Virus record (IMG/VR): IMGVR_UViG_3300047469_000103
Location: 236,332 to 300,331 of that record
Length of the DNA: 64,000 nt
Origin: a virus
Taxonomy: Duplodnaviria > Caudoviricetes
Direction: 5' to 3' (one strand)
Positions 1,689 to 60,277 of this stretch are shown here, piece after piece. The position numbers and the translations under genes are program-made. The notes beneath the pieces were generated by a model that worked only from the letters and a program-made list of their open reading frames with translations, was not told the origin of the DNA and searched no databases. How positions within the stretch are numbered: the stretch's first letter is position 1; every line of letters begins with the position of its first letter.

Positions 1689-2368
1689 CGAAAATCTCCG
1701 ATTGAAGCTCGACGCCAAACGGCGAAAAGCTGTTTATCTAAGTTTGGATACATGGGAATTGTGTTGTCAAAATAAAGCTCGTATTTCAACACGAGGAAAT
1801 CGTTTTTCAACCGTGCAATTTTGACTCGCATGTCCGAGTTAAGAATCACGCTAACTTCCATTGACTCGCGCACCTTATCGGCACGTGGAGGAAAACGATC
1901 AGCGTAAACCGTTTTCTTTTCACCCGCGTGCATTTTCACACGCGACGAAAGTTTCAATTCCTCGGGCAATGTTTTGAATACTTTCAGTTCGACTAATCGA
2001 CGCAGAAGGTAATCAAGTTCGAATCGTTGCGGCTTCAGTTTCACTGTACCGCGAATGGTGAATCCGTTTACAACATTTACCAATTCATCGGCATTCCAAA
2101 CGAATTCAAACTGGTGCTGCACGGGCAAAAGGTGATACAAAAGAAACTTTGAATGCACCTGTTTGGCGAAGGCTTGATACTGCTTATTTACAGTAAAAAA
2201 GTCAGCCAACAATTTCTTGGTTTTTACTTTAACACCGGCTTGCTGCAAAAGAATGCGAAAACATTCACCCAATACAAGCGGTTCAAGTTTGCTTGTACGG
2301 GGCAGCTCTAAAAACGCCTCCCATGATCCTTGAAAATCGTCGCTAATATCGGATGGCATTTTCATCAT
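1685..2368 (-). CDS. hypothetical protein
   Basis: 227-aa ORF coupled by 4-nt overlaps on both sides. Confidence 0.75.
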   Translation of the reverse strand: MMKMPSDISDDFQGSWEAFLELPRTSKLEPLVLGECFRILLQQAGVKVKTKKLLADFFTVNKQYQAFAKQVHSKFLLYHLLPVQHQFEFVWNADELVNVVNGFTIRGTVKLKPQRFELDYLLRRLVELKVFKTLPEELKLSSRVKMHAGEKKTVYADRFPPRADKVRESMEVSVILNSDMRVKIARLKNDFLVLKYELYFDNTIPMYPNLDKQLFAVWRRASIGDFR

Positions 2369-2691
2369 TTCTTTTTCGCCAAGATCAAATGTTTAGCGGC
2401 TGCATGTCCCGGTCGCTTGGAATGGCAATCGGCACACAGAGTCCAAAGGTTACTCATGGTTGTTTGTCCGCCGCGTGCTGCCGGTCGAATATGATCGACT
2501 TGCAGATTTGTTTTGCACGGACATTTTCGGCACGTGTGATTATCACGAGCCAGAACTTTTTCACGTACTGCCATCCAATCCCAACGCTCGCCGTAAACTT
2601 GTACGGACGTGCGCCGAACCTTGGCAACAACAGCAGGTTTTTTCGTGACGCTTTTCGCCTTGAAAGGTTTAATGCGTTTTGGTGTGGTCAT
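2365..2691 (-). CDS. HNH endonuclease with Lys-rich N-terminus
   Basis: CRKC...LQVDHIRPAARGG...SNLWTLCADCHSKR is a classic Zn-binding HNH motif. Confidence 0.9.
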   Translation of the reverse strand: MTTPKRIKPFKAKSVTKKPAVVAKVRRTSVQVYGERWDWMAVREKVLARDNHTCRKCPCKTNLQVDHIRPAARGGQTTMSNLWTLCADCHSKRPGHAAAKHLILAKKK

Positions 2692-3560: not shown

Positions 3561-4403
3561 TTACATCCAAACGTGGGCGCGTACACGCTCCATGAATTTT
3601 TCGTAGTAGGCCGGACGACGTGCAAAAACACGAGCGTAATAGGCGCTGATTTGGTCGATGTTCGGAGTTGCAGCGGTAGCGATTTCGTCTTCCGCGTCAG
3701 CTTCGATTTCGTGGTCAGCGGCTGCAATTACGATCATGTCGCGGTGCAGAGTTTCTTGCTGGCCGTTCGGGCGAACAACCTGAATATCAGTAGTCGGGCT
3801 ACCGTCTTCGTTGTCGATGGAAGCAACAGCAATACCGACGTTCAAATCGCAAGATTGCTGCGAAATGTAGGTAATCAAATCGCCACCGGTAACGGTTGCG
3901 CGTGCTTGTGCGGTATCAGCACCAACGTTCGCATTTACGAAATCGTTGTGGTCAACAGAAGCACAGGCCAGCAATTGCTGCATAACCAGATGGTCGTCAG
4001 CAACAGCGGATTTAACCAGAACTTCACCGGTCGCAGTTTTGCGCAGTGCCCACAGGCATTCGGTATCGTCCATGAACATATTTGCAGCAACGGCTTTGTA
4101 AGCGCCGCGATTTTCGTCGGTCAGCACAATACGTTCGGCAACAACGCCGACGATGCCTTCGAAAATGTGGGTACGTGCATCGCTAGCGAGCGAAACAAAC
4201 GAACCAACAACAGGCGTGATATGTGCGAATTGTTTTTTGATACCGGCGAACACTTGTTCTTTGGTAGCAGCAACGGAAGCGGTTGCGATGATACGCATGA
4301 AACGATCATCAACTTGATACGCTTCACGAATATTTACTTCAGTGGCTTCAGATTTGACGTTGTGGGCCAAAGCCGATTGCGCACGATTGAGGGAAAAAGT
4401 CAT
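3561..4403 (-). CDS. putative virion structural protein
   Basis: 280-aa ORF with strongly biased codons, own terminator and ATAS motif; no family recognised. Confidence 0.6.
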   Translation of the reverse strand: MTFSLNRAQSALAHNVKSEATEVNIREAYQVDDRFMRIIATASVAATKEQVFAGIKKQFAHITPVVGSFVSLASDARTHIFEGIVGVVAERIVLTDENRGAYKAVAANMFMDDTECLWALRKTATGEVLVKSAVADDHLVMQQLLACASVDHNDFVNANVGADTAQARATVTGGDLITYISQQSCDLNVGIAVASIDNEDGSPTTDIQVVRPNGQQETLHRDMIVIAAADHEIEADAEDEIATAATPNIDQISAYYARVFARRPAYYEKFMERVRAHVWM

Positions 4404-4453
4404 TGTTTATCTCCAGTAGAGTAAGCCAAGTGTTACTCTTATTTAAATTAACT

Positions 4454-5668
4454 TTAGAAGAAATTGCGGAAGAATCCGCCAGTTGATCCACGACCGGGCA
4501 AACCCGGCAATCGAGTCATTGGTGTGTTTGAAACTCCGAGAATCCCGATTGCTTTACTGCTGTCGATGAATCCACCACCAGCAGAACCATCACCACTCAA
4601 AACACCGGCTCGGCCTAACAACTTCTTGAGAGGTTTTACAACACTTTCTATTTCCGCATCGAGTCGGCCCAAAGCACTTTCCAATGCTGGCGTTCGGTCA
4701 ACGTTTAAGCTAACCGTTTGCCCACCGAAATCGAATGCTAATGCGCCTTCAGCTTGAATCTGTGCGCCTAATGCGTAAATGGCAGAACACGTCAGCCATG
4801 CACCCATTAATGGCCCCTGCATATTCGTGCCGGTGAAGCTCGAAATGTTTGGTTGCAGGGAGTTAAACATATTCAAACCACGTGACAAAGATTCCATCAA
4901 ATCGGATTGTGTGTATTCCAATTCGGGAATAATGTTCGCGATTCGCGCCCGGTTAATAAAATCCTCAAGCTGGCGCGCAGCCATAAGGATTTGCGGAGTT
5001 ACCGCCCACACTTTATACGACAGTGTGCTACTTGCCAGTTTGCGCGTTGGTGTGTGTTCTACAAGCATTGTCAGCGGTGACATTTGCGGAGTGCCGACGA
5101 CTGCGGGCATATCAATAACGGTGCGATTTTTCATCGCTTCGATATTAATTCCTTGATCCTCGACGTTCCAGTTTTCGTAGACCGCTCGGTTGTTGAAGTA
5201 AAGCGACAGAGTTAACTTATCACCTTCGACTTCTTTTCGTGCTTTTGTACCCTTTGCCAAATTGGCAGGCACTGCGGCGACTGGGGCTTTGTAGGAAATC
5301 GGCAGGGTTAATTGCATACGCGAATCACGTCCGCAAACAATCACGATATCCGATTCACGGCCAAGCGTTGCAGGCTCGACAGTGATAGAAGTTCGTGCCT
5401 GATAATTCCCGTCTTGTCCCTCGTAAGTCCACCGCGCAAACAATTCAACAGCGTCACGCAAATTCATGTTTGGAATTGGAAGGTCAGCCATCCAATTACC
5501 GGGCATTGTCGCGTGAGGTTTTGCGTAAACTTCTGCGATTACAGAACGGTCGGTGTCGAATAATCGAACCAACGGCGCCGGGGAGTTATCCGACGGCAAG
5601 ACTGGATCGTCAAACGCATCGAAAAACTCTTCCGTAATCGTACACGTTTGACCTTCGTATACGTTCAT
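4454..5668 (-). CDS. putative neck / head-tail adaptor protein
   Basis: C-terminal helical part with AFDFGGQTVSLNVDR resembles jumbo-phage neck (gp13-like) proteins; recognised from memory. Confidence 0.5.
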   Translation of the reverse strand: MNVYEGQTCTITEEFFDAFDDPVLPSDNSPAPLVRLFDTDRSVIAEVYAKPHATMPGNWMADLPIPNMNLRDAVELFARWTYEGQDGNYQARTSITVEPATLGRESDIVIVCGRDSRMQLTLPISYKAPVAAVPANLAKGTKARKEVEGDKLTLSLYFNNRAVYENWNVEDQGINIEAMKNRTVIDMPAVVGTPQMSPLTMLVEHTPTRKLASSTLSYKVWAVTPQILMAARQLEDFINRARIANIIPELEYTQSDLMESLSRGLNMFNSLQPNISSFTGTNMQGPLMGAWLTCSAIYALGAQIQAEGALAFDFGGQTVSLNVDRTPALESALGRLDAEIESVVKPLKKLLGRAGVLSGDGSAGGGFIDSSKAIGILGVSNTPMTRLPGLPGRGSTGGFFRNFF

Positions 5669-10412: not shown

Positions 10413-11462
10413 TCACGAGGCCGAAATGCCCAGCCGGGCACAAGCCTTTTTAACTTCTTTTCGACCGGCTTTAATCATTTCTTTATCAAAGCCTTCTGCC
10501 ACCATGAACTCTTTTAAACCAAACATTGGATCAATATCAATGTTTTCCACTTTAATTGATTCATCTTCGGAAACATTCGATTTTTTCGCACCAGCTTTAT
10601 GAATGCCACCGGTAATGTTTGGGTATTGAATCATCAGGTCGGCTGGAATAGGAACGTCTTCAGCTACGTGCAGCTTGTAACGAACGTTATCTGCATAAAC
10701 CAGTTTCTTGTAATCATTGAGGTCATTAATCTCAACGTTCTGCAAAGTAAAGTTTGGTTTGTTTTCAACGAACTTATGTTGGAATGCAACCCGGTTTCCA
10801 TCCATGCTGGCTTTAAAATGAATAAAGCCTTTTGGCAATGCTTCACCAAAGTTTTTCTGGAATGGATTACCGCAATAAACGGCCCGCTTTGCTTTCATGA
10901 ATTGGTATTGGTGAATATGCCCGGAAATAGTGAAATCGTTTTTGTGGGTTTCCAATTCATGTTTGGTTTTCAATGAACGACCATTGTCACCAATTGCGCC
11001 GCTGTATTCAACGTGCGCAAAGTTTAATGCACCCTGTTTAGTGGACAGGGTTTTCAGGCATGGATACGGCAGGAAATTCACCGGTACGTTTTCGATTACA
11101 ACGCGTTCCGGTTTCAGGATGATTTTCAGACGCTTAAACGCTTTCGACGTTGCCAGCTTGTGCATGAAATTCATCGACGTATTTTCGATATCACCGAAGT
11201 CATGGTTGCCCATGATGTAATACGTGTAAAGGTTTTCATCGTGACGCAAAAACAAATCGTACAGCTTGCCGTAGGTATCCCAATCGAGGTCAGGTGTATC
11301 AGACAAATCGCCGGGAATAAATACGTGTTTAATACCGTTGCTATACGCGTACTGATAAATCTTTTCCATTTCCGCCAAGATGCGATCATTTGCATCGGGG
11401 AAATGTTTGTTCAAACCGTCAAGGTGAACGTCAGAAAATGCAATGCCTTCAAGATCAGCCAC
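10413..11462 (-). CDS. sbcD: SbcD/Mre11 (T4 gp47-like) metallophosphoesterase nuclease
   Basis: Motifs SDVH, GDLSD, GNHD, AH, SGHIH; Rad50-like partner 5 kb upstream. Confidence 0.9.
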   Translation of the reverse strand: MADLEGIAFSDVHLDGLNKHFPDANDRILAEMEKIYQYAYSNGIKHVFIPGDLSDTPDLDWDTYGKLYDLFLRHDENLYTYYIMGNHDFGDIENTSMNFMHKLATSKAFKRLKIILKPERVVIENVPVNFLPYPCLKTLSTKQGALNFAHVEYSGAIGDNGRSLKTKHELETHKNDFTISGHIHQYQFMKAKRAVYCGNPFQKNFGEALPKGFIHFKASMDGNRVAFQHKFVENKPNFTLQNVEINDLNDYKKLVYADNVRYKLHVAEDVPIPADLMIQYPNITGGIHKAGAKKSNVSEDESIKVENIDIDPMFGLKEFMVAEGFDKEMIKAGRKEVKKACARLGISAS

Positions 11463-12223: not shown

Positions 12224-12576
12224 CGTAGTTTGATTACTTGGCCGGGGAAGATCAGGTGTGGATTTTCCAGATTGTTCAACGTAGCGAGAGTGCGCCACGA
12301 ATGGCCGGTGCCTTCACCGATGTGCGAGAGCGTATCGCCTTCTTGCACAATGTACATGCCGTATTCTTTCGACACCGCATAACGCAGTTTTTTCTTCAGC
12401 GTTTTCAGTTCTTCGCCGGTGATTTCGTGGATTTCCAGACCATGCGCAGTGTGGCGAGCGACGGTATCTTTAATCGCATGATTTGCAGCAACGATTGTTG
12501 CGCCCGGTGACACAGAGATTTTGCCGTCCGTGTTGATATTCACATTACCGGCAGAAATATTGACTTCGGTATTCAT
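12220..12576 (-). CDS. LysM-domain protein
   Basis: C-terminal YIVQEGDTLSHIGEGTGHSWRTLATLNNLENPHLIFPGQVIKL is canonical LysM; start MNTEV by ATGA overlap. Confidence 0.9.
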   Translation of the reverse strand: MNTEVNISAGNVNINTDGKISVSPGATIVAANHAIKDTVARHTAHGLEIHEITGEELKTLKKKLRYAVSKEYGMYIVQEGDTLSHIGEGTGHSWRTLATLNNLENPHLIFPGQVIKLR

Positions 12577-12938
12577 GAGATTGCAGGTGCCTCGTCGATT
12601 TTCAGTTCTTCGGGAGTTTTGATATTCCGTGCGGCCCACATACTGGCACGCAGGCGATTCAAACCTTCGACACTCATTTGATCTTGCGCATAACTTTCTT
12701 CGGTGTGGAACGGATGATCGACGTGGCCGATAGTGCCAACATTCGGAAATTTCTTACCGAACTTTTGCAGCTTGGCTTCTTCGTCGAGATTGCGAATGTG
12801 CTGATTGAACTGGCGCAGCATTTGGTCATAAGCGGCACGCTGATAAACATATGCGTTTTGCGGTTCGAAATTCCCGAGGTTTGCTTGCTGGATACAGTGC
12901 GCCAGAAACTTTACGGGCGGGCGAATTGGGATAGCCAT
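12573..12938 (-). CDS. hypothetical protein carrying an EF-Tu-identical peptide [10 protein letters not shown]
   Basis: 121-aa ORF; peptide at 12714-12743. Confidence 0.7.
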   Translation of the reverse strand: [121 protein letters not shown]

Positions 12939-12950
12939 GACGGTTCCTTG

Positions 12951-16324: not shown

Positions 16325-16508
16325 GGCGCATCCGGGCTTCGTTAATGGCACGATTACTATCGACGATGGTTTCCATCATGGCCGTAGGACTCATGCGCCA
16401 GCGTGGAATAACTACGTCGGTTTGAATTTTCACGCCACCGGGCAACGGCAGTTCCGCCGCTACTCGCCAGCCGATTTTCTCTTCGTTACATTTCCATTGA
16501 ATTTTCAT
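16302..16508 (-). CDS. hypothetical protein
   Basis: 68-aa ORF with ATGA overlap to the sbcC stop. Confidence 0.6.
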   Translation of the reverse strand: MKIQWKCNEEKIGWRVAAELPLPGGVKIQTDVVIPRWRMSPTAMMETIVDSNRAINEARMRHEQFCKH

Positions 16509-18808
16509 TGTTCAAGCTTCACTCTTGAAACGCCTTTGTGTTTCTCGACAGTCACGTAACTGCAATCGCTGTGAACGTGTTTGCCCTTTTGTGTAATCAG
16601 GAAAACATGCGGCACAAGGGTACGCAGGAACGGAATGTAACGATCAGCAAAAAGCGTGATTGTTGTTTCGTCCATGTGTGCATCTGGTTCGTCGAGGATC
16701 GCGATGTTAACCCGTCGATCAGCCTTCGCCATAATCACGCAAGCGAGGAAGTGCAACAGACGGAAACTATCGGATTCTGCGCCGGACAATTCACGAACGT
16801 CGGATACGTTGCCGTTGCCCCGGTCAACGATGATATGCACGCCATCGTCTTTTGCCACTACGTTGAACTTGAATGGCTCAGCGAAAATCAAGTTGGCAAA
16901 TCGGTTGTAATGTTGCTCCAACTGATAAACGATTTGGTGCATCGCGTGCAGCTTCAAGCCCTTGTTGCTGTAGGCTTTCGACATTGCTTTGTACAACTGC
17001 AATTTCTTTGTCAGCGGTTCCAGCTTTTCAATCTCACCGCTGATTTGATCGCGTTGTTTCGACAGCAGTTTGAATTCAGCGCGACGGCTACCGTGCTTGA
17101 CGGAAATCTCATACGCTTTTTCGTATTTCTTTTCGACCTTCTTCAGCTTGGCGGCAGTCTCTTCTAGCTCGGCGGTCAAGCCTTTGTCTTCTGGCACTTC
17201 TTCGAATTCAGCAAGGCGCTCTTTCAGCGCTTTGATTTCATCGAGGATTTCAACCTGTGCTTCGATTTGTTCCAGCGTGAGTTTGACAGAAACTTTAGGC
17301 GCTTTCGGCTTCTTCAGTTCGGACATTTGCTCAGTGATTTCGTCAAAGCGTGCAGCGTTTTCCAGCTTGTCGGTCAGCGTCTCAAGTTCTTCGTTAGACT
17401 TCTTCAGAGTCTTTTTCAGCGCGTAATAATCACGCTCGTTAAACTTGAGTTTTTCGATGATCGCTTTGTTGGTCGTGCGCGTCTCACGGATTTCGAAAGC
17501 GTGAATCATCGACAGCAGCAAACCTTTACGCTTCTTCGCAGCCTTCAGACTTTTCTCAAGGTCTTTCAGGTTGATTTTCTGCATACAGGTCGGGCAGTTG
17601 CCGTCGTCGTGTTCGTGCAGCAAGTCAGAAAGTTTCAGCGTGGTTTTCACCATGCCTAATTCTTCCTTCATTTCTTCCATCGGATCAAGCTTTTGCTTAT
17701 TGCAACGACTCAAGAAGCTGCGCAGTTCTGGCTCAGTGTGATCGTCGAGGTTTTCCAGTTCCCGCACGGCTGCGTCGAATTCATCGCGGACTTTTGTCTG
17801 CCGCTTGTATTCAACTTCCATCGTTTCAATTTCAGCACGCAATTCTTTGACGCGTTTCTTCAGCTTTTTACCGCCGCCGCAATCGCCAAGTTCTTCCAGC
17901 TTTTTCGTTAGGCGCTTGGCAGTTTTGGTATAGGTGTCCAACTCTTCGTGATACGACTCGGCTGCCTCAAGTTCTTTGTACATCGCCTTCAATTCTGGCT
18001 TTGTATATTTCGCTTTCTTTTGCAGCTTCGCCAGCTTCGACTTTGCAGACGCATAAAATTCCACTTGCTTCATGAGCGAGCGGAGTTCCTGTGTGCGGGT
18101 CTGCAATTTGGTAACTTTCTTGGCCTGAGATTTCACAACCTCGGTGGCTTCGTCGAGTTCCTTTTGGCGGTGTCGATTCCAACCATTTTTATTCAGCGCG
18201 TCATTCGTGTTAAGCAGGTTTTTGCTATGCACGTCGGCTTTGTTCTGCGCGATCTTGACCGCATCAACTTGCTTGTCGAAATACTTGCGCAGAATATCGA
18301 ATTGATCCAGTCGCCACACGGCAGTGATATACGACATACGCGTTCGCGCCGTGCCATACATAAAGTCGAGTTTTTTCTGCGACTGGAGGTGAACGTAGGA
18401 ATACCATTCATCCGAGGTCAGCGGAATAATCTTTTCGATCCATTCGCGCTGTGCAGCTTGACCACGGACTTCCAAATCGGTGCCATCGCGGATGATTTTG
18501 TAGCCGCTTCCGCTTTGGCGAATCGTCCATTTGTGCCCGAGGTTTTCCACGTCGATTTCGATATGGGAACCTTTCGAGTGAATCCGGTTTTTCTTGCGAG
18601 TATCTGCCAACGGCATTTGTTCAAAACGCACGTTGGGCAGCATGCCAAACAAAACAGATTTACCGGCGCCGTTGTTGGTCTTCTTTGAAATCAGAGAGTC
18701 ACGGTTGTGGCCGCTTACAACGGTGAAGCCACAGTTATTCGTGAAATCAAATGCACCTTCTTTGTACGATACAACGCCATTGAAACGACTGCCGGTAATA
18801 TCAATCAT
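16505..18808 (-). CDS. sbcC: SbcC/Rad50 (T4 gp46-like) SMC-family ATPase
   Basis: Walker A NGAGKS, coiled coils with CPTC zinc hook, signature LSGAE, Walker B ILDEP, H-loop. Confidence 0.92.
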   Translation of the reverse strand: MIDITGSRFNGVVSYKEGAFDFTNNCGFTVVSGHNRDSLISKKTNNGAGKSVLFGMLPNVRFEQMPLADTRKKNRIHSKGSHIEIDVENLGHKWTIRQSGSGYKIIRDGTDLEVRGQAAQREWIEKIIPLTSDEWYSYVHLQSQKKLDFMYGTARTRMSYITAVWRLDQFDILRKYFDKQVDAVKIAQNKADVHSKNLLNTNDALNKNGWNRHRQKELDEATEVVKSQAKKVTKLQTRTQELRSLMKQVEFYASAKSKLAKLQKKAKYTKPELKAMYKELEAAESYHEELDTYTKTAKRLTKKLEELGDCGGGKKLKKRVKELRAEIETMEVEYKRQTKVRDEFDAAVRELENLDDHTEPELRSFLSRCNKQKLDPMEEMKEELGMVKTTLKLSDLLHEHDDGNCPTCMQKINLKDLEKSLKAAKKRKGLLLSMIHAFEIRETRTTNKAIIEKLKFNERDYYALKKTLKKSNEELETLTDKLENAARFDEITEQMSELKKPKAPKVSVKLTLEQIEAQVEILDEIKALKERLAEFEEVPEDKGLTAELEETAAKLKKVEKKYEKAYEISVKHGSRRAEFKLLSKQRDQISGEIEKLEPLTKKLQLYKAMSKAYSNKGLKLHAMHQIVYQLEQHYNRFANLIFAEPFKFNVVAKDDGVHIIVDRGNGNVSDVRELSGAESDSFRLLHFLACVIMAKADRRVNIAILDEPDAHMDETTITLFADRYIPFLRTLVPHVFLITQKGKHVHSDCSYVTVEKHKGVSRVKLEQ

Positions 18809-56616: not shown

Positions 56617-57026
56617 CCTACGAATTAGACAGGCACGTTGGAGATTTCCGCGCTGTCAAATTTCTGTGCGATGACGGTGAATTTCCACCGATGACGGTTG
56701 AACTGTTCCAACGCATACGCAATGTGGGAAAAGCTGATATTTTCGTGGTCGGCCCAAAGATCGCAGAGCATTTCTATCACACGCTGGGCAAATGGTATTT
56801 CGATAGAAACGGTTCTACGCCGTTCACGGATTACTTTGATCTGCATGCGTCTGCTTCTGATAAAGAACGTGGTTATTTGGGAATGTTGCTGGGCCTTGAT
56901 ATCGTGACCAGACCAGACCTCGACCCGTTCTTAGTTGCTGGTGTAGAATTAAAACTGCCGCCCGTTTGGACTGCGTGCCACGTCACGCTTGATTCCGCAT
57001 CAAAAAGAATTGAGGAAAATCTGTGA
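56613..57026 (+). CDS. hypothetical protein
   Basis: 137-aa ORF. Confidence 0.7.
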   Translation: MTYELDRHVGDFRAVKFLCDDGEFPPMTVELFQRIRNVGKADIFVVGPKIAEHFYHTLGKWYFDRNGSTPFTDYFDLHASASDKERGYLGMLLGLDIVTRPDLDPFLVAGVELKLPPVWTACHVTLDSASKRIEENL

Positions 57027-57733
57027 TTAATCTTGACCTGCTTAATCTGACTACGCCGGAACCGAAACCGGGCACCAGCGTAAACATGATTTACGCACCC
57101 GGTACATTCCCGCAAAACGAATTCTTTTCTGTGCTGGCAAATGGCGACCTGAAACTGTGGGCACCAACGAAAGGCGTATCGTCGAAATCGACCAGCCGCA
57201 CACGCACTGAATTGCGCGAATGTTTGGCGAATGGCGCAGTTTACAACTGGCAGTATCCAGACCAGCCGCACCACTGGCTGCGCGTAGCAATGACCGTGCT
57301 GCAAGTTCCGAAAAAAGGTGAAACTGTTGTCGGTCAAATCCACGTAAACGGAAACACGCGACCACCTGTAAAACTTTCGTTCGATAAAGCGGCTGACGGT
57401 GTAGGTCAATTGACTGTTGGTTTCCGTGAAGTTTTCGATCAGGTTAATCCTGTCGATTTCGTGTTGATGAATAACATCCCGGTCGGTACGCGATTCACTT
57501 TCAACATTCATGTCACGGCATCCGGCGCGGTTTTGTTTTCGTCGAGTTTCACCGATGCGAACGGGCAAAAACAAACGGGTAATCTCACTTTGCAATTCGA
57601 TGCAAGTTGGGCGGATCAAGGGATTTATTTCAAGGCCGGTGTTTACAATCAGGAAGACCCGACCACGGAAACCCTAGCAACCGAAGGCAGCGCCGCGCTG
57701 TTCCACAAACTGGAAATCACTCACGGAATTTAA
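57023..57733 (+). CDS. polysaccharide lyase family 7 (alginate lyase)
   Basis: All three PL7 motifs: RTELRE, QIH, YFKAGVYNQ. Confidence 0.9.
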   Translation: MINLDLLNLTTPEPKPGTSVNMIYAPGTFPQNEFFSVLANGDLKLWAPTKGVSSKSTSRTRTELRECLANGAVYNWQYPDQPHHWLRVAMTVLQVPKKGETVVGQIHVNGNTRPPVKLSFDKAADGVGQLTVGFREVFDQVNPVDFVLMNNIPVGTRFTFNIHVTASGAVLFSSSFTDANGQKQTGNLTLQFDASWADQGIYFKAGVYNQEDPTTETLATEGSAALFHKLEITHGI

Positions 57734-59045: not shown

Positions 59046-59477
59046 ATGTCCGTTATTGATCGTATCACGGCTGACCGCGCAATCGCACGTCAGGACAAAG
59101 ACACAAACACTTACCAGATTCTGACGCAGATTCTCGGCAATTACCAAACCGGCGCCACGCTGAAAAAACCACGAGTTGGTGACAGCGCAATGATCGCCTG
59201 CGTTCGCGAAATCACAAACGCGAATAACGAAACCATCGCCCTGCTGATGAAAGCCAATACCGAAGGCCAGCACCAGCCAAAAATTGACGACCTCTACAAG
59301 CAGACGGTAATGCTTATGCAATACCTGCCTAAGCTGCTGACTGAAACCGAATTGGCGGATATTCTGGCCGCTGGTGAGTACGCAAACATCGGTGCTTTCC
59401 AAAAGTTTCTGCGTGAAAATCACACCGATTGTTTCCAACCGGGCGTAGCGGCTGCTGTGTTCAACGCGGCTAAATAA
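59046..59477 (+). CDS. GatB/YqeY-domain protein
   Basis: Helical pattern ...ARQDKD...L...E...LMQYLPKLLTETEL...IGAFQKFL typical of YqeY. Confidence 0.75.
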   Translation: MSVIDRITADRAIARQDKDTNTYQILTQILGNYQTGATLKKPRVGDSAMIACVREITNANNETIALLMKANTEGQHQPKIDDLYKQTVMLMQYLPKLLTETELADILAAGEYANIGAFQKFLRENHTDCFQPGVAAAVFNAAK

Positions 59478-59696: not shown

Positions 59697-59774
59697 ATGC
59701 TCTGTGTCCGCTGCTACGAACAATCATACCACTGCACCTGTGGCCGTTATATTTTTATCGGGAAAACAAAATGA
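59697..59774 (+). CDS. 25-aa Cys-rich microprotein, absent from ORF track
   Basis: MLCVRCYEQSYHCTCGRYIFIGKTK; GAGGA RBS; ATGA overlap with the next gene. Confidence 0.55.
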   Translation: MLCVRCYEQSYHCTCGRYIFIGKTK

Positions 59775-60277
59775 CAACTCGCGTTCTGACTGACGAAGAA
59801 ATCCAGCAACGAATCGACGGCAAAGTAACCATCGTGCAGCAAGGTCGAATCCCGATGCACGAAGGTGTGCAACTGTTCGAAAAAGAATATATCGGCAAAG
59901 CAAAAAGCAGCGCCGACGCCGCACTCGCGTTGGCTGTATCCGCTTTCGAAGACGACCGCCGTGGCGAACGTGCGTATGTTCGCAGTATCGTTTTGATGGG
60001 CGTAGATTTCGAACACGTTTGCGTTCTGACTGCTGCGCTGCGTCCGGCTCCGATGACCTACAGCCAAGCGCTGGAAAAACTCAAAGATAAACAACGTCTT
60101 GCTCGCGCTGGCTGGAACGGTGCAGGCCAGTACGTTTATTTGGTCGAAGGTTTGCGTCATGGTGAAATCGAATTCGAACCTGTCTTTGTAATTCGTAACG
60201 CGCAAGGCAAACACCAACCGGGCTGGCTGGCATCTATGGGCGACCAGATGGCCGGGGATTGGGAAATCGTTAATTAA
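59771..60277 (+). CDS. tad2: DUF2829/Tad2 (Thoeris anti-defence 2)-family protein with N-terminal extension
   Basis: MTYSQALEKLK...ARAGWNGAGQYVYL...GWLASMGDQMAGDWEIV is the DUF2829 signature. Confidence 0.75.
   Translation: MTTRVLTDEEIQQRIDGKVTIVQQGRIPMHEGVQLFEKEYIGKAKSSADAALALAVSAFEDDRRGERAYVRSIVLMGVDFEHVCVLTAALRPAPMTYSQALEKLKDKQRLARAGWNGAGQYVYLVEGLRHGEIEFEPVFVIRNAQGKHQPGWLASMGDQMAGDWEIVN

Follow-up and report, generated by a model that had tools for sequence, protein, structure and literature searches.

A phage protein of 121 residues, here called P0001, carries an exact copy of the segment of bacterial EF-Tu that forms strand beta-1 and the first half of the G1 motif, and it represents a new, sequence-unrelated family among the non-GTPase phage carriers of this peptide. 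We favor, at a probability of about 0.45, the reading that the short module built around this copy is a selected and displayed linear mimic of the beta-1/half P-loop segment of EF-Tu. This reading is preferred because the peptide stands on at least 10 unrelated phage protein families, and another invariant EF-Tu peptide never does. P0001 itself is a non-enzymatic accessory protein.

The P0001 gene and its match to EF-Tu

P0001 is encoded in a stretch of 64,000 nucleotides, referred to here in its whole length as the window, which is part of the genome of an uncultured jumbo phage akin to Pseudomonas phage Lu11. The head-tail connector of this phage shares 76% identity with its counterparts in Pseudomonas phages HRDY3 and Lu11, its SbcD-like nuclease is 63–67% identical to the HRDY3 and Lu11 proteins, and contigs bearing P0001 reach about 300 kb. 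An alginate lyase is also encoded in the window (PF08787; Table 1) and fits an alginate-producing host such as Pseudomonas.

The P0001 open reading frame is a genuine gene, since it is preceded by a Shine-Dalgarno sequence, its stop codon overlaps the ATG of the downstream LysM gene as ATGA, identical copies or homologues at 72–90% identity recur in conserved synteny on more than 20 independent metagenomic contigs, and its overall pN/pS is 0.22. The LysM gene follows the P0001 homologue in every related locus that extends that far, the distant locus L013 included. The gene occupies a variable islet between SbcC-like and SbcD-like genes, an interval that holds other small genes in Lu11 and HRDY3. 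Neither a P0001 homologue nor the decapeptide, with V/I/M variants allowed, occurs in the complete genomes of these two phages, so the gene is dispensable for this phage type.

Table 1. Features of the P0001 gene and of other genes in the window (window coordinates)
Feature	Position	Strand	Basis
P0001 gene (121-aa accessory protein with EF-Tu decapeptide)	12573..12938	-	ORF and translation; homologues at 72–90% identity, pN/pS 0.22
N-terminal helical-hairpin domain, residues 1–63 (predicted)	12750..12938	-	AlphaFold2 helices; sole part common with P0004
Motif module F64–P76, [FY]-P-NVGT[IV]GH[IV]DH-P	12711..12749	-	pN/pS 0.079 (residues 65–76); frame also in L022/L051 and L100
Decapeptide, EF-Tu strand beta-1 and first half of G1	12714..12743	-	Translation, phmmer
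C-terminal extension, residues 77–121	12576..12710	-	Alignment, AlphaFold2 model, pN/pS
Shine-Dalgarno AAGGAA, four bases upstream of the P0001 ATG	12943..12948	-	Read from sequence
LysM-domain gene, 118 aa, downstream of P0001	12220..12576	-	Pfam LysM E 2.6e-11
SbcD-like gene	10413..11462
PTH2-like gene, 119 aa	13870..14229	-	E 0.0066, 17 bits (Pfam cut-off 23)
SbcC-like gene	16505..18808
Alginate lyase	57023..57733	+	PF08787 E 2.5e-41
YqeY-like match	59046..59477	+	E 9e-4, 19.8 bits (cut-off 27)
168-aa protein, C-terminal Tad2-like domain	59771..60277	+	PF11195 E 1.1e-20

Translation places the decapeptide at P0001 residues 66–75 (codons AAT GTT GGC ACT ATC GGC CAC GTC GAT CAT), where 10/10 residues are identical to EF-Tu residues 13–22. 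A phmmer search against PDB chains aligns P0001 to EF-Tu over the same ten consecutive identities and over nothing beyond the motif, in agreement with the sequence-only reading that first pointed to the peptide. Chance expectations computed from the window's own composition amount to 2.6e-9 (amino-acid model) to 5.5e-9 (degenerate DNA pattern) matches per window, or about 0.009 per 1e11 bp, and the match is not due to chance.

Because the residue after the decapeptide is Pro76, which stands at the position of the second P-loop glycine (EF-Tu Gly23), P0001 lacks GK[ST] and has neither its Lys nor its Thr, as the sequence-only reading had observed in noting the missing GKT; where the G1 consensus is GxxxxGK[ST], P0001 has GHVDH-P-F-H. 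No G2–G5 motifs, G domain (about 190 residues) or domains II/III are found in this protein of 121 residues, which is predicted to be mostly helical, and a Pfam search returned nothing at E <= 1. The P-loop cannot form, and P0001 is not a GTPase. Compared with bacterial EF-Tu (tufA/tufB, PF00009), it is alike in ten residues and unlike elsewhere.

The remainder of the protein had been described as unrelated to EF-Tu, and both alignment shuffles and profile decoys confirm it. An EF-Tu N-terminal HMM aligns only P0001 residues 60/62–75/76 (14–16 residues), and a fraction of 0.20–0.62 of decoys with shuffled flanks score at least as high as the real sequence. The EF-Tu GGAAR and IDNAP sequences belong to the switch-I region, where prolyl hydroxylation takes place in Pseudomonas, and we considered whether "WAAR" and "IDEAP" in the P0001 tail make it an extended homologue of EF-Tu residues 23–60; this was rejected, both by local alignments to 24 EF-Tu sequences compared with shuffles (p 0.14–0.53) and by the HMM, which scores the shuffled-flank decoys equally. 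A "KF" resemblance upstream of the motif, also raised previously, adds no measurable score.

Constraint on the motif within a modular protein

AlphaFold2, run with a five-sequence alignment, gives a low-confidence model of P0001, with a mean pLDDT of 65. Helices are predicted over residues 9–20 and 29–63 (block mean pLDDT 76–89 over residues 11–60), followed by coil over residues 64–82 that includes the motif (pLDDT below 50 at 67–75 and 77–83), a short helix at 83–86, a helix at 90–103, and a conserved tail without structure. On this model P0001 would be a small helical scaffold with a C-terminal extension, the motif lying in the extension's linker, which is probably unstructured. The extension comprises a variable segment (77–89), the helix 90–103, and the tail TPEELxIDEAPxxS.

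The extension that bears the motif is modular, and the scaffold is able to exist without it. P0004, the product of a complete 67-aa gene from a more distant phage, matches P0001 residues 1–63 only and lacks the motif; the gene holds the same position, immediately upstream of a LysM gene and near an SbcD-like gene. An exhaustive phmmer search of 1.84 billion representatives added only P0004 and a spurious coiled-coil match. No match emerged from tblastn of P0001 against 50,697 phage records, no relatives from a metagenome scan with the P0001 family alignment, and only marginal matches confined to the motif from a search of PHROGs; P0004 is a singleton for which no relatives were found. Foldseek comparison of the P0001 model with BFVD and the PDB gave no match at E <= 0.001, and the ESM Atlas returned only unnamed clusters at scores below 0.9. 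The idea that P0001 is a piece of the Lu11 endolysin was rejected for want of similarity.

Selection on the gene was assessed with its four long homologues, a small sample (n=4). Across these, pN/pS is 0.158 in the scaffold (residues 1–58), 0.33 in the segment before the motif (residues 59–64), 0.079 in the motif (residues 65–76), the lowest value in the gene, 0.50 in the segment after it (residues 77–89), and 0.244 in the C-terminal part (residues 90–121); pS within the motif is 0.54. By this measure the motif appears as the most constrained part of the gene, an island between its two most variable segments. Conserved islands of this kind, set in a variable and probably unstructured linker, are typical of short linear motifs.

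P-NVGT[IV]GH[IV]DH-P is present in each of the four long homologues, and the only changes are V73I and I70V, conservative exchanges between branched aliphatic residues; H72, D74, and H75 are invariant across the family, with His or Tyr at +3. Since V73I and I70V are tolerated, perfect identity with the EF-Tu of one host is not required. The sequence-only reading had allowed for chance or neutral capture if the peptide should vary among homologues, and its retention in every close homologue (PNVGT[IV]GH[IV]DHP) argues against both. A captured tuf fragment had likewise been proposed. The homologues bear no trace of recent capture of tuf DNA, because the third positions of their codons differ freely, and the flanks of the motif carry no EF-Tu signal.

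The same peptide on unrelated phage proteins

A degenerate-DNA scan of 2.9 million IMG/VR contigs recovered the exact decapeptide at 49 loci, 27 of which read on into GKTTLT and belong to EF-Tu genes. At the remaining 22 the peptide is part of a non-EF-Tu ORF, and these ORFs fall into at least 10 unrelated kinds. The EF-Tu G3 decapeptide DCPGHADYVK, which is just as invariant, served as a control and was found at 37 IMG/VR loci, every one a genuine EF-Tu (22/49 versus 0/37 non-EF-Tu occurrences, Fisher p = 4e-7). Beta-1/G1 is the piece of EF-Tu that phages specifically keep. Forms without the P-loop glycine were found at nine viral loci by a scan that allowed V/I/M variants and excluded Gly by requiring that the codon after the motif not start with G; the relaxed scan added L100 (HFP-NVGTVGHIDH-S) and L101, the latter a 255-aa ORF (1795–2562, minus strand) on a 270-kb viral contig, with the motif as a C-terminal tag.

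The carriers are graded in form from clearly tuf-derived to motif-only. In L029 (3053–3634, minus strand) and L058, about 50 aa from the EF-Tu N-terminus are joined in frame with a putative YbcO nuclease (PF07102, E 3.5e-44, 60-kb viral contig). Mini-proteins of about 55–70 aa (L019 1213–1419, L037 8525–8872, L017, L030, L033, L047; PHROGs 27465/12626) have the whole EF-Tu N-terminus followed by a diverged helix, and their genes stand in the lambdoid nin region, flanked by NinB/Orf and the HNH/NinG/RusA/Q genes. ORFs annotated as hypothetical proteins in two cultured phages, Aaphi23 and S1249, match the motif-bearing N-terminus of the mini-proteins, and a genome map of Aaphi23-type phages marks the EF-Tu mini-protein "Tu" (PMC3391216). 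Like P0001, the mini-proteins are phage-encoded, bear the exact decapeptide, and are of uncharacterized function; unlike P0001, they retain the whole EF-Tu N-terminal arm and the GK. Against the two PHROG profiles P0001 scores E 0.017 and 0.11, over residues 62/63–76 only, versus 5e-15 for a true member. Further exact carriers are L022/L051, L023, L035, L039, L045, L056, and L057, the last a 177–195-aa ORF (4247–4831, minus strand) flanked by the genes for the major head protein and the head-tail adaptor, in a structural module.

A close parallel in known phages is a set of small accessory proteins of SPN3US-like jumbo phages (SPN3US_0192, ChrisDB gp215, and those of phiEaH2, Huxley, and Machina), some of which bear the GenBank product name "putative elongation factor Tu." They share with P0001 the exact decapeptide, the absence of the P-loop glycine (HVDH-SRS), and a location downstream of an SMC/SbcC-like ATPase gene, with a few small genes in between. 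BLASTP similarity between the two groups is nevertheless confined to 13 residues, and the SPN3US-like proteins keep an EF-Tu-like "HV" ahead of the motif and, behind it, a stretch resembling helix alpha1, neither of which P0001 keeps. Cultured carriers of the decapeptide are Aaphi23, S1249, SPN3US (SPN3US_0192), ChrisDB (gp215), and phiEaH2. Our literature search turned up no paper on phage copies or mimicry of the EF-Tu N-terminal strand, only the "Tu" map label and the GenBank names.

Three unrelated families of large phages (P0001, L022/L051, and L100) share more than the decapeptide, namely the frame [FY]P-NVGT[IV]GH[IV]DH-[PS]. BLASTP of P0001 against the otherwise unrelated L022 protein gives 13/17 identical residues, and against L100 a 12-residue P0001 stretch aligns with FPNVGTVGHIDH. 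Common to the three is [KR][FY]P...DH[PS]; the flanks of EF-Tu itself are H-V before and G-K after. The shared frame suggests either that a 12–13-residue module was passed from one phage gene to another or that the families converged on a common requirement. P0001 has N[VI]GT[IV]GH[IV]DH in a phage ORF without a working P-loop and under purifying selection relative to its flanks (n=4), which places it in this informal class of carriers.

Cellular genomes present a different picture. Among genomes of 185,579 bacterial and archaeal species, one per species, the pattern lacking the P-loop glycine matched, besides EF-Tu, two small ORFs from Firmicutes MAGs and a single short ORF in which the EF-Tu N-terminus is kept ahead of the motif. 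The EF-Tu matches come from lineages that read TGA as Gly and from first-base variants of the Gly codon. In Absconditabacteria-/Peribacteria-type and a few unclassified MAGs (L104, L105, L111, L114, L117, L120, L122, L125–L127) a TGA codon specifies the P-loop glycine of EF-Tu, which marks genetic code 25. L109 and L115, from Clostridia and Erysipelotrichaceae MAGs, are small ORFs that carry a decapeptide form which we take to be the usual one of Firmicutes EF-Tu; this is a hint that copies follow the host's own EF-Tu sequence. Non-GTPase carriers of the beta-1/G1 peptide are essentially a phage phenomenon.

This distribution bears on two explanations in which the peptide has no function as an EF-Tu copy. 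That the resemblance arose by chance or by convergence alone, without common origin or any relation to EF-Tu, accords with the lack of similarity outside the ten residues, but this view would have to overcome an expectation of 3–5e-9 per window and about 0.009 per 1e11 bp, the 22 independent non-EF-Tu occurrences versus none for the control peptide, and the existence of graded forms from tuf-derived to motif-only; we regard it as extremely improbable. The second would make the stretch a DNA-level element, such as an attP core or a recombination or homing target matching tuf, with peptide identity as a by-product. The DNA encoding tuf G1 is highly conserved and a good integration or homing target, and one mini-protein ORF lies directly upstream of an HNH endonuclease gene. 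Set against this, the 30 bases vary at many synonymous sites among the four homologues while the residues are fixed, the stretch lies in frame inside a conserved ORF, the P0001 islet contains no integrase, the lambdoid mini-protein genes stand between NinB and NinG/RusA/Q and not at attP, and the window phage resembles virulent jumbo phages, so that such an element is highly improbable here. An attP-type duplication of the tuf 5′ end was also considered for the temperate-phage mini-proteins and rejected on their nin-region location. The placement of P0001 between SbcC and SbcD, of the SPN3US-type gene after an SMC-like gene, and of the mini-proteins beside Nin nucleases prompted the idea of a common link to recombination nucleases; it is not general, as the L057 carrier lies in a structural module.

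Candidate roles of the displayed segment

In the mechanism that we propose, the helical scaffold (residues 1–63) would carry the C-terminal extension, whose linker would display the 12–13-residue module, and the module would engage whatever recognizes or packs against the EF-Tu beta-1 segment. Candidate targets would include a factor that recognizes EF-Tu chains while they are nascent, unfolded, or cleaved, and the surface of the G domain that beta-1 normally fills; the scaffold may supply the remaining activity. This reading is the most parsimonious one, in that the peptide would be held to the EF-Tu sequence by a function that relies on the likeness. The sequence-only reading had suggested a mimic or decoy. 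A role of this kind is favored over neutral capture by the conservation of the peptide, its recurrence on unrelated proteins, and the absence of the control peptide from such proteins; the more specific suggestion of a decoy for defenses that target EF-Tu is conjecture.

EF-Tu residues 13–18 form the buried central strand of the G domain and offer no linear epitope to partners of folded EF-Tu. Classical surface mimicry is awkward for this reason, and a partner would have to meet EF-Tu as an unfolded, nascent, or cleaved chain, unless the partner is the surface of the G domain. Mimicry of host proteins through short linear motifs is well known for eukaryotic viruses. P0001 resembles those cases in having a conserved, host-identical island in a variable, probably unstructured linker, on one of several unrelated viral scaffolds, and differs from them in that the copied segment is a buried core strand and not a surface docking motif.

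The chief rival of the mimic reading takes the same burial as a sign that the segment is an unlikely epitope, and holds that the module was inherited, by an old tuf capture or by passage between phage genes, and kept for an internal job, as an oligomerization strand or as a His-x-Asp-His(-x-x-His) metal site. Invariant H72, D74, and H75 with His or Tyr at +3, the sharing of [FY]P...DH[PS]xH and not of the EF-Tu flanks by unrelated families, and the tolerated V/I exchanges are all compatible with such a role, and it could also account for the strong constraint on a strand-turn-His/Asp element. The carrier scaffolds, however, are unrelated (helical hairpin, YbcO fusion, C-terminal tags, and mini-proteins of about 55 aa), and an internal role would be expected to let them drift to different optima, yet N-V-G-T-I-G and H-V-D-H are identical to EF-Tu in all. 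The metal site in particular is disfavored by the +3 His, which is not conserved (Tyr in the homologue P0003, Pro or Ser elsewhere), and by the candidate co-ligands H14 and C15, which vary. On balance we consider a structural or metal-binding role unlikely, while giving it more weight than any other alternative.

A translation-related context had been read into the neighborhood from a PTH2-like gene about 1 kb away and a YqeY gene in the window, the latter probably the YqeY-like match of Table 1. P0001 and these two would then manipulate translation as a module, with EF-Tu, EF-Ts, or the ribosome as the binding target of P0001. The PTH2 match is weak in the window, and its Lu11 orthologue, gp114 (L064 5887–6513), passes the Pfam cut-off with 24.8 bits. 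Gp114 also has a C-terminal LysM domain (E 4e-10). Indeed, the PTH2-like sequence is the N-terminal domain of a LysM-bearing protein of 208–211 aa in Lu11 and HRDY3 (HRDY3 counterpart: L065 4877–5512), annotated as an endolysin, and this fusion points to the cell wall and not to tRNA. It is unusual for a PTH2-fold domain to be joined to one that binds peptidoglycan; in the window the PTH2-like and LysM sequences are separate genes, with three genes including P0001 inserted between them. Moreover, both window matches fall below their Pfam cut-offs, the YqeY-like one lies 46 kb from P0001, the PTH2-like gene is missing from the P0002 phage locus, which keeps its P0001 homologue, and carriers elsewhere lie in nin regions, in structural modules, or in other islets, and have no translation genes in common. 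The proposed context is therefore weak, and a translation module appears improbable.

As the most abundant bacterial protein, EF-Tu is a node of conflict, with Lit, type IV Thoeris, Avs7, and Q-beta replicase all converging on it. The Lit protease works together with the Gol peptide of T4, type IV Thoeris has a caspase that cleaves EF-Tu after R45 and R59, and Avs7 makes use of domains II–III of EF-Tu. These systems resemble the case of P0001 in making EF-Tu a recurrent point of phage-host conflict, and the window encodes a Tad2-like anti-Thoeris domain as well; they differ in that none is reported to recognize EF-Tu residues 13–22, and no significant similarity links the P0001 tail with the switch-I region where type IV Thoeris cleaves. 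The Tad2-like family comprises Thoeris anti-defense sponges, and because such a domain is encoded the window phage probably meets TIR-signaling defenses.

A bolder extension of the mimic reading, which we hold to be doubtful, is that the beta-1/G1 peptide serves phages as a portable tag directed at a host process that reads EF-Tu in its unfolded, nascent, or cleaved state. The peptide would then have moved between phage genes in the phage-adapted frame [FY]P-NVGT[IV]GH[IV]DH-[PS], and its target could be, for example, a guard-type defense or a quality-control factor that monitors the integrity of EF-Tu. Were this so, the carriers would constitute a new class of anti-defense or takeover decoys that work by core-strand mimicry.

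Many unrelated phages, from 40-kb temperate to 300-kb jumbo, keep an exact copy of this EF-Tu segment on small proteins incapable of nucleotide binding, and its retention across them points to an interaction for which precisely this sequence is needed. Folded EF-Tu buries the segment, so the partner may be one that handles EF-Tu before folding or after damage; we know of no such player. With SPN3US, ChrisDB, and Aaphi23 as cultured carriers, the role of the peptide is open to genetics.
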